A DNA stretch of 41,940 bases from Rhizaria sp. SCN 62-66 (lineage: Eukaryota). The stretch lies in contig MEDY01000184.1 in assembly GCA_001724265.1 (NCBI GenBank), positions 62,001-103,940 of the forward strand, read 5' to 3'. This document shows, in pieces, positions 33,377-41,940 of the stretch; within the stretch, counting starts at the first letter, position 1; every line of letters begins with the position of its first letter. The notes under the pieces are model-generated. The model made no database searches. It was not told where the DNA came from and saw only the letters and a program-made list of their open reading frames with translations. The translations under genes and the position numbers were made by a program.

Positions 33377-36279
33377 ATGCCGACTGACTTTACGGCCGCG
33401 TTCCGCGCCGCCGTCAAGGCTATCCCAGCTTCGCAAGCTGGCCCAGCTGCTGCTTCTGACTCAAGTTCAGCAGCTGCTGTCGTTGCATCTGCTGTTGCCA
33501 CCGCAGCTGATGGCTCTGTCGTGCCACTGCTTGCTACGCCATCAACGCACTTTGCCACCGCTGTGCGCGCTTTGGTACGTTCCCTTGCCCGCTCTTGCTA
33601 TTTTGAGTGACTGTCTCGAAGCTCAATCTAATCGTCAATGCTTAGCACACTCGCTCACACTCCCTCTCTCGCACATCCTTCTGTCACTCTCGTGCATTGC
33701 ACCATCGCTTTATCTACTCCAGGCCCGCGACCTCGTTGTGACGCGCGCCCTGTTGGCCATTCTCCGCACCGCGTACGTTACTCCCGCCTCGACCGCCGCC
33801 GCCGCCGCCGCCGACGCCGCCACGGCCGCCGCCTCTACAGCCGCCGCCGCCGCCTCTGTCTCTGCTGGCGGCGCCGCTGCCGCCGCTGGGGCCGGCGCGG
33901 GGCCGTCCGCGTCGTCGGTCGCCGCGGCCGCCGCGCTGGGCCACGGCGCCTCGCCCGCGGGCGTCGAGCTGGCCGCGTTCGTCCGGACCAGCGCCCCTTA
34001 CATCGCGCGGGCACTTACATCCGCGCTCACACCCCTTACCTTGACCCCGCAGAGCAGTGACGCCAGCAGCAGCAGTAGGACCGCCAGCGCGGGTGCGGGC
34101 GTGCTCGAGCGCGCGTTCTCCGCGTCCCTCTCTTCCTCGGCCTCGGCGGCGGCGGCGCTTGCCCCGCTGCTGCCGCTGCCATCGCTGCCGCCCGCGGCCG
34201 CCGCAGCCGCCGACGCCGCCACGGCCGCGGCCCTGCGCGCCGCTGCGGCCGCCGCGGGCGCGCTTAAGGGCAGCCTGGCCGCGGGCGCCGAGGCGCAGGC
34301 TATGTCGCGCGCGCAGCGCCGGGCCGGGCGGGACGCTCACCGTCACGCTGACGAAGGCAGCGGCAGCAGGCTGGGCCTGTTTGGCAGGCTGGCGGCCGCG
34401 GTCACGGGCTCGAGCGCCGCGGCGAAGCGAGACGAGCTGAGGGACAACGAGGATGACAGTGATAGGAGCGATTACGAGTTCGACGTGGACGCCGGCAGTG
34501 GCGCCACTTCGGCCGTCTACAACACGAGCGCAGCGACTGACAACGCGGGCGGCTCGGGCGCAACCAGCAGCAGTAGCAGCAGCAGCAACGGCAGCAGTGT
34601 TCGTACCAGCTATGATGCGAACTCGAAGTCGAAGTCGAAGTACCCGCTGAAGGGTAAGTACCTCAAGTACCGCCGTGCTCCGGTGCCCGACAACAGCGTC
34701 AACAAGAGCGCCCCCTCAACTCAGAGTGTTGTTGCTTTCGACGGCAGCTCTGCCGACCCGCGTGTTAGTCTCGGTCTCAGTCCCTCGTCATTAGCCCTCG
34801 AGCGCCTTCTAAGTGCCCCCTTAGTCTCGCCCGCTGACTACCGCCACCGCCACGCTGTCGTGGCCAGTCTCGAAGCCGCAATCGCGGCAGTCGCGGGCGC
34901 GCTCGACGCCATGCGCAAGGAACGCATCAGCGTCTCGCACATCGCCGCTCTCAGCGCCTCCACTGGCAGTGGTAGCCGCAGTCACAATGGCGGGGTCAGT
35001 GGCGGCGGCGGCGCGGCGAGCGCGAGTGCGGGCGCGGGCGCGGCGGGCGTGGCGGGCGGCGGCGGGCACAACAGGCGGCGGCAGCAGCTGCTCGTGAAGT
35101 TCGACCCTTCGAGTCCCATGGGGGCCACCACCGCTCGCACGGGCGCGGGCTCTCGTGTTGAGGGCAAGGACGACCGCGGCGGCCACGGCGACGACGTCAT
35201 GTCTGTGAGTCTGGACGACGTGCTCAGCGGGAAAGTCACGTCGCCTGATAACAAAGCTAAGCCGCAGAGCCCCAGCTCGAACGCGAGTGCGAACACGAGC
35301 CAGGGCAAGAGCAACGGCGGTGACAAAGGGGCGGCTCCAACTGAGGCGGACGCCGTGGCTGTTACAGCGGCCATGATGGCCGCGGGCTTGCTCCACTCGC
35401 AGCCGCAGGTCAAGACGGGGACGTTGTCTTCCTCCGGCTCCGGTGGAAGCGCTGTGGACGGTCTAAGTGTTGGTTTAAGTACCCCCGCGCTGGGCCGCGT
35501 GGCGAGCGTTGAGTGGGAACTGGTCCCGGGGCTGGACCACCACCTCGCCGGCACCAAAACCTCCATCCTGCACGCGCAGCCGCCGCGCCGCGGCTCCCTG
35601 GCCTCGTCTAAGGGCGTACTTAGCGAGGGCAACGAAGCGATCGAGCGGGCCCGCGCGCGCCAGTGGGCGCAGGCGGAGCGCGGGCCCACGGGGGGCAGCT
35701 ACAACGGGGACGATAACGACGCACTCTACATCAGCGACGACGGCGACGATGGCAGCGGCAGCGGCAGCGGCAGTGGCAGTGCTGGTGCTGATCTATACCG
35801 GGCGCGTATGCTGGCCCAGGTGACCGTGAGCAAGAGCATCGTCGACTACGACCTGCAGTCTGCACTTGAGGCCGAGCGCACGATGAGCACGATCAACGAC
35901 ATGCTGGGGCTGTTCAACACCAAGCTGGCCGAGCAGGGCGACATGGTCACCAACATCTGCGCCAACACCGTCGAGGTACGGACGATTTCGCATGATAGAT
36001 TTATGCCCATTGAGTCTATTAACACTATTGATCTTTTAATCTTTAAACAACATTGTATTGACTTACTTCTCCATGCATTGCAACATCGCCATTTGCTCAC
36101 ACACTATAATTTGTACATATTTTTGTCTCTCATCTTTGCAGACGACTTCGAACCTCAATGTGAGCAAATACCACCTCGAGCAGGCCCTGAACCGTGGCAA
36201 CAACTGGTCACGCTTCCTGGTCATCATCTTCGTTGCATTCACACTCATCATTATCCTCCTCGACTGGTCAAACAACTAA
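33377..36279 (+). CDS. STX18: Syntaxin-18/Ufe1/SYP81-like ER Qa-SNARE, 3 exons, ~862 aa
   Basis: Exons 33377-33574, 33723-35975, 36142-36279. N-peptide MPTDFTAAFRAAV; HRHAVVASL; SNARE heptads AERTMSTINDMLGLFNTKLAEQGDMVTNI...NLNVSKYHLEQA (central Gln); C-terminal TM FLVIIFVAFTLIIILLDW, typical of Syx18. Confidence 0.85.
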
Positions 36280-36525
36280 ACCCTGATTGTTGGGACAAGC
36301 ACAACAAATTGATGCTTGACTCTAGCAGCTTGCTTTTACCTAGTTTCAATACATGATTGGCAGTTGCTCTGGCATGTTTAGAAAAGTGATTGTGAGCAGT
36401 TCCACAGTTCTGGAAATCTCCGGAGGAAACCGATGGAATTGGCACAAAACATGTATGACAGTGAAACGAGGAATTCTGTGCTAGTTGCAGAGTCACCTTC
36501 GCTTTGGTCATGCAGTCTTCATCGG

Positions 36526-39281
36526 TTACTCGTGCCCCTGCGGCTTCTCTTGCTCCTGCTCCCCTTCTGACTGCTGTTCTTGCTTTTGTTTTTGCTCTTG
36601 CTTCTGTTCTCGTTGCTGCTCTTCATGATGCTCATCACACTCTTGCAGCTGAGGCGTCAACATTGGAGCCGTGGCGTACTGCTTCTGTGACGACGACTGT
36701 GGTTGCACATGCAGACTGCCATTAGCCTGCTGAAGTGATGGTGAATCTACGTGCTGTTGCTGCTGCTCTTGTTCTTGCTGTGCCTGTCGCCCTAACAAGT
36801 CTTGTTGCTGCTTTGAACCTTCATCCAGTTGCATATGTTCTTGTTGCTGCTGCGTTTGTTGATGCTCCGGGGACTGATACTGCTGCCGCTGCTGAGTCTG
36901 TGATGACGCGATTCCATGCTGGTGTTGCGGATAATGTACTATAATAGGCGCCGTAGCGGACTGCTGCTGATGTGATGACTGCGCTGAAATCTTAATTGCA
37001 GCAGTGGCATGCTGCTGCGAGAACGAGTGCATGTGTTGCTGTTGTTGCTGTTCGAGATATTGCGGCATGAGCTGCCCCGCAGCCATTTGCTGCTGCAATG
37101 ACGGTTGCGGAGGATACTGAGACATCTCCACAGACTGTTCCCATCCTTGACTCTGAGTTTGAAACAAATCTCCGCCAGGCATAGCCCCTGTGAAGCTCTG
37201 CGGAACAACAACCACGGACGTGGACGGAGGCGACTGAGGAGCCTCCACGTTGAAAAGACCCAGGGGCGCCGTGCCCGGAGTCCCAACGGCGCTGATGTAG
37301 ACAATGGGCGCGTTCTTCTGAGGTGAGACAAGAAGTTGCTTGCGTGAATACACAATCACAGAAGGCGTGCACCAGCGCCATAAACAGAGATAACATGGAA
37401 AGCACGCAGTCACGATTGAACAGCACACGCATGCGGGGGAAGTGATGCATTCGTGAATGCATGGCATGCTATCGTCCTGTGTCAAAAAACAACAACACAC
37501 ACACATTTATAAATGTGTAAGAATCAGCACTAAAACGTGTTCGTAACGTGATATAATGTAGTCGACAATCAATGCGAAAAAAACACTTCGCTGAATGCAT
37601 TATGAAACATTCATTTAATCATAAGCTGACTTCATGCATTGAGTTGTGTAGGGTTTTTGACTCGAAGTGTGAGATCATGTCACCGCATACATATCGTCTA
37701 TCATACGCTTTTCAAGTTGTTGTACCTCGCTCACAGTTTATTTGACCACACTGCAGTGAGGATTTGCGTACCTTGTGAACATACACGGACGAGACTTTTG
37801 CGACTTCCGGTGAGTACTCCGTCGAAGCGTCACACTTTTCGTCCATAGCACTTAACTTACGCTCAATGAGAGAAGGACGCGTGGCAGTCGTCTACTCGCT
37901 CCCAGGAGTGACCTTATGGTCGATGTCAAATTCGACTAAGAACCCACTGCCGATAACCTGGTTCACGGCGTCACGCAGTGCCTCTGATGAGTGCGAAATA
38001 TCGCGCGCGGCCGTAATGGTGTACGGGAAGACTGCACTGTTGGAGCGCGAAGATGCGATACGGAAACCAAGATCACATAAAAACGTGCGTACAAATAACA
38101 ATTAGCACACATTGCAGCAATAATAATAATAAATACGTATAGTGATTAAAAAGAGACTGAGATACAGGATCTCATGATAGTGCTCTTCCGTACCTGTAGG
38201 TGATGCTGACGTATGAATAGCTACATTTTTTCACAATATGACTGTTCATAACCCTAGTGGCAAGCTTAATGGGCGCAACGCGCATGCGGTCAAAGTGCGT
38301 CACAATGTCATCAATTGTTGCGCGCTCGGTGAATTGTGCCGATTGAAACACAGTGGGCATGGCCTTGTTCTTGCAGCGGAGACAACATAAAGAGTCCCTA
38401 AGCGTATCGAGATCCGGCACATCGGCCTTAGTGTTATCGCGCGTGAAATCCAAACTGCGCTTGAGTGAAACTGTTGGTGTCACGCACATCGGACAGTAGT
38501 CGAGGATTGCAATAAGGGGCAGACAGACCCAGAGGTAGGTCACTCCAACGATCACACTCAAGATGATGATGAGGGGTAGCGGACTAAACAGCGGAACGGC
38601 GTTACTCGGATATACAGCAATAACGTCAGAAACTAAAAGAGTTCCAAAAAGACAGACTAGAAGAAGGAAAATCACGATAACTTGTCCTCCGTTTGTCTAG
38701 CAACAGAACCCTGCGGCAGCCAGTGGCGAATAGTATTTTACTACCGGTGGTTTGACCGAGGCGTCCATGGTGTCAAAGTCTGCACATGTTGCACCGTTGG
38801 CGTACATAGTCTCAGCTGACTGGGTTGCCAAAGGGGGCGGCATGGAGGCCACCGCGGGGACGCCCGGAGTTGAAACGGGGATGTTGCTGTTAGCTGGAGC
38901 CGCGTTTACACCCACGCTGACAGTATTACCAGGTGAGACTGATCCACCACCCATCATCACAGTTCCCGTAGAAGAGGCCGGTACATAATACTGCGGCTGT
39001 GACAGCTGCGACTGAGATTCCGACACAAGACTGTGGGACTGCCATTGTGGAAATGGGGAAACTTGTGTCGTGCTGGCGAGGGACGTTGTATACAGATGTA
39101 GTGGTGATTGATGGCTGTCATCGTAGGCCGGGGGTAAGGGGCTCTTCTCTAAAGGTGTTGCTGATAAGTCCGGACGAACCAGCCAATGCGTCGTGCGCGC
39201 ATTGTGGTCAACGTAGTAGATGCGTCCCCAGTCGTCCGTTCGCTGCTCACAGCCTTCGGGCAGTGGACGAAGCTCTTTCAT
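36526..39281 (-). CDS. WW-domain + TMEM151-like membrane protein with Gln-rich tail, 3 exons, containing two in-frame TAG codons (readthrough gene or pseudogene)
   Basis: Exons 39281-38194, 38036-37772, 37476-36526; introns GTACGG..ACAG (phase 2) and GTACGC..ACAG (phase 0) keep one frame to TAA. WW domain PLPEGCEQRTDDWGRIYYVDHNARTTHW; two TM helices; TMEM151-like FDRMRVAPIKL..SH..ITYSAVFPY..ARDIS and a Cys-rich TM CFPCYLCLWRWC. TAG at 38699-38697 and 37894-37892. Confidence 0.65.
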
Positions 39282-40556
39282 TGCTGTGAGGAAGGTGGAG
39301 TACAAATACATCAGCACAACATATGAGTCATAGTTTTGCATAATATACATATTGGTATACCATGCCATTTGATATTGCACTGCTGTACAACATTTTATAC
39401 GGAGCGATGTGGGGGATAAGAGGCGAGTGCTTGCGAGCAACTGTCTGACGCAAGTGTTCAAAACTCTTTCTATATGCAACGCTTCGGGTCTAAATTGGCA
39501 CATCCCACAATACTCGCTGAGAGAAAAACATAGCTGACGCGGTCATTTGAACAGGCAGATGCTTGCATAGCGGTCATCGACTCAGACGACACCTTCAAAG
39601 TTTGCCCGTGATGTCGACCAAATCGAACCATTTATTGGACGGACTTAATAAAATACCCTGACGTTCTCAGCGGCAGCCAGACTATTTTATCGGTCCAGCT
39701 GCTGCCTTAACAGGACCAGCACAAGTCCGCCCCACGCCCTGATATTTTGAGAACCCCAACGGAAGGGACGGGGCAGGTGGTGTCGAAGAGTGCGCAACTA
39801 CAATGTGAGATTGCTTACCATTTGCGCACAAACACGACGGCGATTTTGTGTGATGATAGTGTTTATGGATTAAGTATGATGTATGATGAAGATTGTATCG
39901 AAAATTATTATGACAACGAGGTTAAAGGTAGTGAACATTCGGTTTGTTATTAATAGAACGAAGTGGTGGCAGTGGACAACATTTGGACTAACTGACCTAC
40001 TTTAAATGTGCATTTACGCAATTCTACGACTTGCTCTTCATGCAGAAACCTCGGACTTGCCCACAGGGGTTAAGTTTGTACTTTCCAAGATGGAGATTAG
40101 ATGTAGACTTAGAATTTAAAGAGATATATGAAGTTTATATGTAAGGATACCAAGGAATATGCTCAATTATGCTGTTTATTGAAGACTGTATTGATGGGAA
40201 AATAAAAATTAAGTTTGTACATGTATTATACCTTCCAAGACTAAGGGAGGTCCACTCTCATCTGACGGCATCTGGACAGTGAATAAATTTTGCTATTCTT
40301 AACGTAGTGACACTTTAGATAGTAAGTTAACTCGGTTATTTTTGTATATTTACAAATTTCTCAAATATATCCCTATGTTAAGGGCCCCAATTTGGGCTGT
40401 GAAGTTACGTCTTCAGAAACTGATTTCATGACAATTGGTTATCACTGAGGTGCTTGCAGAATCGAAATCTAAACACAGCAATTCAAATGTCAAAAACGAC
40501 CACAATCAAAAAACGACCCAAAAGTATATATACCGGGGTTTCTGCGATACAATATA

Positions 40557-40586
40557 CAGGGGAAACGCCGGGCGAGTCGAACGCTC
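40557..40586 (+). repeat. Left TIR of the Tc1-like element
   Basis: CAGGGGAAACGCCGGGCGAGTCGAACGCTC, preceded by TA. Confidence 0.93.
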
Positions 40587-40728
40587 AATTAGAAACTTTG
40601 TTTTTTCTTAATGTATAACTTGAAATACAATTATTATACCACGATCCGGGTTAATCTAACTTAAAGTTTTCAAATATAATATTTGTTCACTTAAAACCCA
40701 TCATTTTACGTGACATCTATCTAGGACC

Positions 40729-41709
40729 ATGAACGGCATCCGCCACTAGGAGGCCGTGAAGCGCGACATCTGCGAGCTGCGCGAACAAGGCACGAGCTTC
40801 CGCGCGATTGCAGTAATCACGGGCGTCTCTCTGAGTCTTACTCATTACTACGCTGGTCCGCTCGCGGGCGTTGGCCGTTGCCCGCGACACGGTCCGAAGC
40901 CTTCCCCGGTCTACCTCATCACTAACAACCGGCTCCCGGATTTCAAGGAGATCGTGCTTGCATAGCCCGGAGCGAGTCGCGATGTCATTTTCGCAAAGAT
41001 CCGTAACGAGATGGACATCTTGATCTCGACGACCACATTTTCGTCCTGCCTGCGTCGCGCCTACATTCGCTTTGGCAAGCCGGCTGTGCACATCGACATC
41101 TCGCAAGTCAACATCGACAACCGTCTCGCCTGGGCCGTGGCTAACCTCGGACGCGATCTCAGCAACTTTGTCCACAGCGACGAAAAGATCTTCATCGCTG
41201 GTGCTCGTGGCAACAAGATTTACTACGAGCTTCACCACCGCCCGATCATCCTCGCCAACCGCTGGTCAGCCAGGATCCACATCTGGTGGGCCATCTCTAA
41301 GTACGCGCGCTTCGAGTCCTTTGTCATTGAAGGGCGCCTCAACTCCGAGAGTTTTCAAGAGGTGCTTACGGAGAGCCTGCTGCCATGTACTCGCGAGGAG
41401 CAGATCTTCCAGCAAGACAGCGCGCCGGTCCATGTGTCTCGTTCTACCCTCGAGTTCCTTGCTCGCAACGACGTTCCTCTGCTCGAGGACTGGCCAGCGC
41501 AGTCCCCTGACCTGAACCCGATAAAGCATGCTTGGGCTCAGGCGCAGAAGATCGTTGCTGAGCGCAACCCTGCTAACGCAGCAGAGCTCAAGGCCGTTGT
41601 TCTAGACGTTCTTCGCACGTTCCCCCAGGACAGCATCAACAGGCTCATCGACAGCGTACCAGACAGGCTGCAAAAGGTTATCGAAAAGCAGGGTCGTTTT
41701 CTCGGTTAA
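40729..41709 (+). pseudogene. Tc1-like transposase (326 codons) with two in-frame TAGs and third catalytic residue E>K; likely inactive copy
   Basis: ATG 40729; HTH ICELREQGTSFRAIAVITGVS; FVHSDEK (D1), QQDSAPVH (D2), WPAQSPDLNPIKHAW (K at the E position, 35 residues after D2). TAG at 40747-49 and 40963-65, both in frame with the flanking ORFs; TAA at 41707-09. Confidence 0.8.
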
Positions 41710-41813: not shown

Positions 41814-41843
41814 GAGCGTTCTACTCGCCCGGCGTTTTCCCTG
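41814..41843 (-). repeat. Right TIR of the Tc1-like element
   Basis: Reverse complement CAGGGAAAACGCCGGGCGAGTAGAACGCTC, 2 mismatches to the left TIR, followed by TA. Confidence 0.93.
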
Positions 41844-41940
41844 TAAGGTAACTTTCAAAAAGTTCCGCCCCCTTTTTCGGAAAGTTTCGTCAGAAAATGT
41901 ATTAAAATCAGGAATGAATCAAAACAGCAGTGAATTGAAA

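Follow-up and report, generated by a model that had tools for sequence, protein, structure and literature searches.

UAG as a probable glutamate codon, with UAA and UGA as stops, in the nuclear genome of a rhizarian

The DNA analyzed here is a stretch of 41,940 nucleotides of contig MEDY01000184.1 (positions 62,001 to 103,940) from Rhizaria sp. SCN 62-66, referred to below as the window, and the assembly that holds it (GCA_001724265.1) is eukaryotic, with 34.9 Mb in 714 contigs. Near the end of the window lie a gene for a WW-domain membrane protein and a Tc1/mariner transposon, and the coding sequences of both contain in-frame TAG triplets. A preliminary description, made from the letters of the window, had proposed that this genome decodes UAG as an amino acid or leaves TAG nearly unused, while keeping nonsense decay as an alternative. 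Genome-wide counts, a tRNA gene with a CUA anticodon and TAG codons in conserved genes support the first proposal and leave hardly any doubt that UAG is a sense codon in this nuclear genome. We put at roughly 0.86 the probability that it has been fully reassigned to glutamate, with UAA and UGA serving as stops.

In-frame TAG in two genes of the window

All four in-frame TAGs reported earlier are present, two in each gene (Table 1). A spliced model of three exons gives the WW-domain gene 767 codons, free of TAA and TGA up to its TAA terminator, in agreement with the preliminary description; among the four acceptor pairs tested, the one adopted for exon 2 is the only one that leaves the frame free of TAA and TGA. 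The transposase frame matches the DDE_3 (PF13358, E=6e-13) and HTH_Tnp_Tc3_2 (PF01498, E=2e-5) domains. Gene ends in the window are likewise as first described, with seven TAA, five TGA and no TAG. Given equal probabilities for the three stops, the chance that all four in-frame stops of the window would be TAG is about 1%, which is suggestive only.

By themselves, the four window sites say little about the residue: a divergent paralogue has Ser and Arg opposite two of them, a third is opposite Glu, and no homologue aligns over the fourth. The Glu comes from a transposase paralogue that has GAG at 40963, and neither CAG nor TGG. The paralogue of the WW-domain gene (L011:2697-4700, contig C321) carries an in-frame TAG of its own within the WW domain, at a site that differs from the window's two, and this TAG aligns with a Glu of the window gene.

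An independent Glu-to-Lys lesion at the third catalytic position of the transposase, also pointed out earlier, is confirmed by Glu in four of the five other aligned copies (Lys in one), so that the transposon is probably inactive whatever TAG means. The region 36001-41000, with the WW-domain gene and the transposon, has a GC content of 42-49%, against 52-70% in most of the window, and the GC content at third codon positions is 0.55 in WW exon 1 compared to 0.72-0.89 in three conserved genes.

Table 1. Features of the two TAG-bearing genes, in window coordinates (a hyphen within a peptide motif marks the TAG)
Feature	Position	Strand	Remarks
WW-domain membrane-protein gene, exon 1	38194..39281	-	ATG at 39281; PF00397 match; spliced model; paralogue on contig C321
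WW gene in-frame TAG 1	38697..38699	-	GFCC-TNG; exon 1; Ser in paralogue, hence uninformative; Glu under the proposed code
WW gene exon 2	37772..38036	-	50% identity to paralogue
WW gene in-frame TAG 2	37892..37894	-	PGSE-TTA; Arg in paralogue, hence uninformative
WW gene exon 3	36526..37476	-	Cys-rich stretch, Gln-rich tail, TAA end
Tc1/mariner left terminal inverted repeat	40555..40586	+	32 nt, 94% complementary to right arm
Tc1/mariner right terminal inverted repeat	41814..41845	-	32-nt partner of left arm
Tc1/mariner transposase frame	40729..41709	+	326 codons, two TAGs, TAA end
Transposase in-frame TAG 1	40747..40749	+	IRH-EAV; codon uncovered by any other aligned copy
Transposase in-frame TAG 2	40963..40965	+	VLA-PGA; GAG (Glu) in 85%-identical copy, contig C78; nucleotide alignment
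Lys at transposase third catalytic position	41524..41526	+	most copies Glu

Two further repeats occur in this region. One of about 480 nucleotides (39740-40220) recurs in over 20 partial copies in other parts of the genome, many of them at contig ends. The right end of the Tc1 element adjoins the second, which breaks the assembly; the final 97-98 bases of the contig (window 41843-41940) are 100% identical to contigs C321, C139, C589 and C268.

TAG inside coding sequence and at gene ends

Genome-wide counts were made on about 0.85 Mb (about 2.5% of the genome), with a coding model trained on stop-free frames (about 0.82 Mb). When a stop triplet had to have coding signal both before and after it, 15 TAG passed but no TAA or TGA, even though TAG is the least frequent of these triplets in the sample (9,453 versus 11,774 and 22,087). 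A stricter best-of-six-frames count over 105,607 confidently coding codons found 17 TAG, no TAA and two TGA, both of which look doubtful and off-frame, alongside 4,342 GAG and 482 GAA. Three of the 17 TAGs stem from domains fetched because they hold TAG, so that the unbiased rate comes to about 14 in 105,000, or one per 7,000 codons; by extrapolation, the whole assembly would contain about a thousand or more in-frame TAGs. These counts put the excess of in-frame TAG beyond chance, and a TAG share of about 0.3% of the Glu codons bears out the suggestion that the triplet is nearly unused. It is more frequent in genes with weak codon bias, both window genes among them.

Splice acceptors inflate raw TAG counts within Pfam matches, and such cases were therefore inspected and dropped. 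TAG is the only stop in 9 of 142 kinase matches, and five of the nine are exonic; the other four were set aside as actual or apparent acceptors, with upstream intron sequence in L149 and L154, a pyrimidine tract in L155, and L150 judged an acceptor solely from its position at the match start. The TAGs in kinesin, DEAD, myosin, SNF2 and two more kinase matches, as well as two of three in Ras matches, proved to be acceptors or intronic, and the ABC, AAA and dynein N2 matches examined contained no TAG. Of five kinase matches with TAA or TGA, the four inspected (all but C178) run into introns.

Apparent gene ends in the sample comprise 70 TAA, 56 TGA and 4 TAG, and those without a splice donor just upstream, according to the gene models, comprise 53 TAA, 40 TGA and 1 TAG. 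Of the four apparent TAG ends, three come after a donor and are consequently intronic. TAG thus accounts for one uncertain terminator among 94 and is not a common one, while UAA is the commonest stop at the sampled ends, and UAA and UGA have been kept as terminators.

Under a standard code, the in-frame TAGs would result from nonsense mutation of dead genes or from misassembly, and any tRNA with a CUA anticodon would be a pseudogene. The independent catalytic lesion of the window transposase, the TAA and TGA in other copies of it, and the many TAGs within Pfam matches that are splice acceptors would all agree with such decay. However, decay predicts TAA and TGA as well, yet live-looking genes contain 17 TAG and no TAA. 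Internal TAGs are also not confined to transposable elements and pseudogenes, as they occur without TAA or TGA in conserved genes for the translation release factor eRF1, a UBE2J-like enzyme and kinases, and the sole eRF1 found would lose the sequence past its N-domain TAG. The counts and the RNA contigs described below largely refute decay and assembly error, and we regard a standard code as very improbable; nonsense decay, which the preliminary description had considered plausible, is not borne out.

An in-frame TAG and altered stop recognition motifs in eRF1

A search of the genome with PF03463 gave three matches, of which one is an eRF1 gene and the other two are parts of a Pelota-like gene. 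Exon 2 of the eRF1 gene, whose terminator is TAA, has an in-frame TAG at C63:103465-103463 that aligns with human Glu107, in a column with E 106, D 10 and V 1 among 117 homologues. The organism's own eRF1 gene appears to depend on UAG as a sense codon.

Sequencing runs of other studies cover this codon. Contigs of run X5 skip all three eRF1 introns, and the one across the codon (record 10, spliced across intron 1) has no differences from the genome; as these contigs are intron-free with GT-AG joints, they point to RNA, although the run is automatically labeled as probably DNA. In run X7, a poly(A) library from another study, a contig (record 16) covers the UAG, again with no differences, whereas run X8 gave short eRF1 pieces only, none listed over the codon. 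The match of X5 and X7 to the genome, with identical TAG in two other studies, indicates that the eRF1 TAG does not stem from misassembly and stays unedited in the assembled RNA. A variant contig from run X4 has GAG at this codon among many third-position variants, and TAG and GAG probably exchange between strains at this site.

Two of the eRF1 N-domain motifs that the preliminary description had named for inspection, GTS and TASNIKS, are altered. Ser replaces Thr32 of the GTS motif (Thr in 117/117 homologues) and, at TASNIKS, Gly57 (Gly in 117/117), while Thr58 is replaced by Lys, which otherwise occurs only in the closest homologue (Thr in 116/117). This homologue, P0004, has T58K and M34V in common with our organism and retains Thr32 and Gly57, and its source may represent a stage that preceded the reassignment or runs alongside it. 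Thr32 adjoins the third stop base (PMC4605324), and its replacement in Iotanema (T32G) has been tied, as a hypothesis, to lost UAG recognition (PMC5304391).

A single tRNA gene with a CUA anticodon

A pattern search revealed one tRNA gene with a CUA anticodon, apparently in one copy, at C84:76008-76080. The gene reaches 58 bits against RF00005 and has a short variable loop; that its cloverleaf pairs completely and its internal promoter boxes are intact argues against a pseudogene. Its free-energy fold is not a cloverleaf (z -1.5), and the covariance alignment was used instead. A nuclear gene of the Pol III type, it encodes no CCA, a T run follows it, and its neighbors are formin, Sld5 and Vps39 genes. 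No exact match to its 3' half was found in prokaryote genomes.

Among the tRNAs recovered, the closest relative of tRNA(CUA) is tRNA-Glu(CUC), with 47 of 73 positions identical, followed by tRNA-Glu(UUC) with 38 and tRNA-His and tRNA-Asp with 37. Its first five acceptor pairs equal those of both tRNA-Glu types, unlike those of tRNA-Asp, tRNA-Gln and tRNA-Lys, and tRNA-Gln falls outside the ten closest entries, so that an origin from tRNA-Gln, as in a code of the Iotanema type, was rejected. The genome contains eight tRNA-Glu genes with CUC and one with UUC; a pattern search for a UUA anticodon gave no matches in the genome, although an intron-bearing or atypical gene would escape it.

A looser tRNA pattern gave matches at control level and was discarded as noise. 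Scanning metagenomes for the D-arm and anticodon of tRNA(CUA) returned 39 loci, and as no CUA tRNA called there shares the acceptor stem, the D-arm motif is not specific to Glu. Six loci (L202, L209, L212, L219, L225 and L228), on low-GC metagenome contigs, hold near-identical CUA-anticodon tRNAs with T runs, whose acceptor stem is unlike that of the organism's tRNA(CUA) and unlike the Gln-type ones in L230-L239.

ARAGORN labels the gene Pyl, by its anticodon, which would favor UAG as pyrrolysine, but a profile search of the genome, whose assembly may be incomplete, with PylS (TIGR02367) gave no match. The D- and T-loops are ordinary and the anticodon stem has five pairs, features unlike those we take to characterize tRNA-Pyl. 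Alternatively, UAG might be removed after transcription, by tiny introns or by A-to-I editing to UGG (Trp); stop codon editing to Trp occurs in filamentous fungi. RNA-derived contigs equal the genome at the eRF1 codon, although contigs cannot fully show the absence of a base change, and Trp has the lowest profile sum (see below), 32.5 bits under Glu. We consider both pyrrolysine and removal of UAG scarcely conceivable.

The amino acid inserted at UAG

The assignment to glutamate is made because of the identity of tRNA(CUA) and two deep alignment columns, that of eRF1 and that of the UBE2J-like enzyme, where 129 of 150 homologues align with D 88, N 13, E 12, S 8, Q 1 and K 0. In addition, the TAG of a transposase from a second family (C179) stands opposite a Glu of the window transposase. 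Pfam bits summed over 10 TAG sites are 637.9 for E, 636.8 for K, 635.6 for Q, 628.3 for S, 624.1 for D, 619.2 for L, 618.0 for Y and 605.4 for W; judged by these profile scores, Leu, Tyr, Trp, Asp and Ser are ruled out. For Leu, which lies 18.7 bits under Glu, rejection also follows from the short variable loop of tRNA(CUA), as tRNA-Leu has a long variable arm. An EFHB-like site lies outside its own Pfam profile and gives no residue signal, and three further TAG sites have no Pfam match; searches of the PDB with two of the kinases returned nothing at the thresholds used.

Several observations weigh against glutamate, or against its full adoption. The Pfam sums place Glu just 1.1 bits over Lys and 2.3 over Gln and by themselves do not distinguish it from either, and two added transposase sites score E 51.5, K 50.4 and Q 51.6. 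Both homologues found for a MORN3-like gene have a basic residue opposite its TAG, Lys in one and Arg in the other, the TAG of a ubiquitin-domain copy corresponds to Gln in the genome's other copies, one TAG lies inside a Gln run, and that of a decayed transposase aligns with Lys. The tRNA comparison set is incomplete, with 63 of 506 candidates scored. At eRF1 codon 107, the closest homologue (P0004, 84%) has Val, so that the column is not invariant in the lineage, and the GAG variant of run X4 is one contig of depth 4.9, below the caution level of 5. Finally, one possible TAG terminator is left, on the minus strand of L154 at 5399; as 16 codons and then a TGA follow it, it may be an internal codon.

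If UAG were sense but meant Gln or Lys, or a mixture, through a partly mischarged CUA tRNA or competition from a near-cognate tRNA-Gln(CUG), then the narrow Pfam sums, the ubiquitin and MORN3 sites, and the fact that Gln is the most frequent published reassignment of UAG (PMC11687900) would be accounted for. On the other hand, the acceptor stem of the CUA tRNA is of the tRNA-Glu kind, the two deepest columns are acidic (Gln in 0/117 for eRF1 and 1/129 for the UBE2J-like enzyme, Lys in none), and both exchanges seen at the nucleotide level are of TAG with GAG. The TAGs paired with Lys or Gln would fit single-base changes from AAG or CAG to TAG, now tolerated as Glu substitutions. Taken together, Gln, Lys or a mixture appears quite improbable, and Glu remains the residue we favor.

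A possible route to the reassignment

Our findings lead us to suggest that a copy of a tRNA-Glu(CUC) gene had its anticodon mutated to CUA, and that its product would be charged by glutamyl-tRNA synthetase and would read UAG and not UAA, because of a C:A mismatch at the wobble position. UAG recognition by eRF1 would have been lost or reduced, most plausibly through Thr32Ser, Gly57Ser and Thr58Lys together, and TAG would then drift in, mostly where codon bias is weak, as expected after capture of a vacated stop codon.

Alternatively, UAG may have a dual role, in which tRNA-Glu(CUA) acts as a weak suppressor in competition with an eRF1 still able to recognize UAG, resulting in partial readthrough and some gene ends at UAG. 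The single copy of tRNA(CUA) against eight of tRNA-Glu(CUC), the very low use of TAG, the hydroxyl retained by Thr32Ser and the one candidate TAG gene end are what such a role would lead one to expect. We nevertheless consider it distinctly unlikely, as TAG stands at 1 of 94 gene ends and yet inside eRF1, as the other apparent TAG ends are intronic, after a splice donor, and as spliced eRF1 mRNA with UAG upstream of two introns occurs in the second study's data, even if contigs give no level.

An improbable further reading is that the code change is midway, with the single tRNA-Glu(CUA) pitted against an eRF1 that partly recognizes UAG; as a UAG lies in the very domain with which eRF1 reads stops, eRF1 output would hang on their competition and form a eukaryotic feedback loop, for which the autoregulation of bacterial RF2 provides a model. 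With exLh, a rhizarian in which UAG means Leu, nearby, UAG termination would have weakened once, in an ancestor, and two different tRNAs would each have captured the codon. The apparent GAG at the eRF1 codon of a related strain means that the feedback loop would not be conserved.

Relation to known codes

The preliminary description had cited precedents for UAG alone as a sense codon, meaning Leu or Gln; UAG alone as a sense codon holds here, while the residue points to Glu and to neither of these. The nearest precedent is exLh (Sainouroidea), of the same or a neighboring cercozoan clade, in which UAG alone is sense and UAA and UGA are stops, as here. In exLh, however, UAG means Leu, the cognate tRNA gene was only predicted, whereas here it was found, and the eRF1 motifs are reported as intact with an L69A change, in contrast to the altered GTS and TASNIKS motifs described above (PMC5304391).

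UAG means Gln with UAA as a stop in Iotanema spirale, Hartmannula sinica and Trochilia petrani (PMC5304391; PMC11687900), and UAG alone means Gln in Protocruzia; UAG means Leu in three phyllopharyngean metagenome-assembled genomes, and Scotinosphaera is given, with reference to another study, as the Ser case among UAG-only codes (PMC11687900). Iotanema and the phyllopharyngeans thus resemble our organism in that UAG is decoupled from UAA, but differ in lineage and amino acid. Thr32 of eRF1 is altered both in Iotanema (T32G) and here (T32S) (PMC5304391). The usage of UAG differs greatly, as it makes up about 8% of Gln codons in Iotanema compared to about 0.3% of Glu codons here, and it occurs in 78-91% of genes in the ciliates that share this group with Iotanema (PMC11687900).

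Glutamate has been assigned to UAG in Oligohymenophorea sp. PL0344, via tRNA(CUA) genes nearest to tRNA-Glu, as here, but there UAA means Lys and UGA is the sole stop (PMC10553269), whereas UAA is the commonest stop in our organism and no in-frame TAA was found. Blastocrithidia (UAR = Glu, UGA = Trp; PMC12153298) and peritrich ciliates (UAR = Glu; PMC11687900) also have UAG as Glu, but in both UAA is reassigned as well. A UAR = Glu code is rejected here, as in-frame TAA is absent and TAA is the commonest gene end. Our searches, in a literature largely without subscription journals, found no published description of a nuclear code in which UAG is Glu and UAA a stop; the known codes with UAG as Glu also reassign UAA. 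UAA and UAG are usually reassigned together.

This code would bring the reassignments in or near Sainouroidea to two, with an amino acid other than that of exLh, and with the decoding tRNA gene and an altered eRF1 both identified in one genome, and the eRF1 substitutions bear directly on how UAG is distinguished from UAA. With UAG about once per 7,000 codons, the genome looks early after codon capture, and this early stage would have been caught in a GC-rich genome and not an AT-rich one. Standard annotation cuts the affected genes short, eRF1 included, and codes this sparse are easily overlooked, which suggests that more are hidden among protist assemblies.

The organism and further observations

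Sequencing runs that contain the organism's eRF1 are labeled bioreactor, wastewater or activated sludge. The species-named best homologues of its p97 are from chlorarachniophytes, the exception being a long arthropod protein whose domains are repeated. In a quick maximum-likelihood tree built from 52 of the 120 p97 homologues, the organism falls in a 10-row clade that includes Guttulinopsis vulgaris, itself on a long branch, with SH-aLRT support of 100. On this one gene, we place the organism in Cercozoa, in or beside Sainouroidea. No polyubiquitin junction, the site of a cercozoan insertion test, was recovered; the ubiquitin genes found (L178, L179, L196 and L197) are monomer genes with an extra Met-Ser ahead of the usual start, and those in L178 and L179 have a three-residue tail. 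The 18S rRNA match (L177:1501-5945, contig C706:4459-8903) spans 4,445 nucleotides against a model of 1,831 positions, and it has several long insertions resembling group I introns, the first of which seems to contain a His-Cys-rich reading frame, perhaps that of a homing endonuclease.

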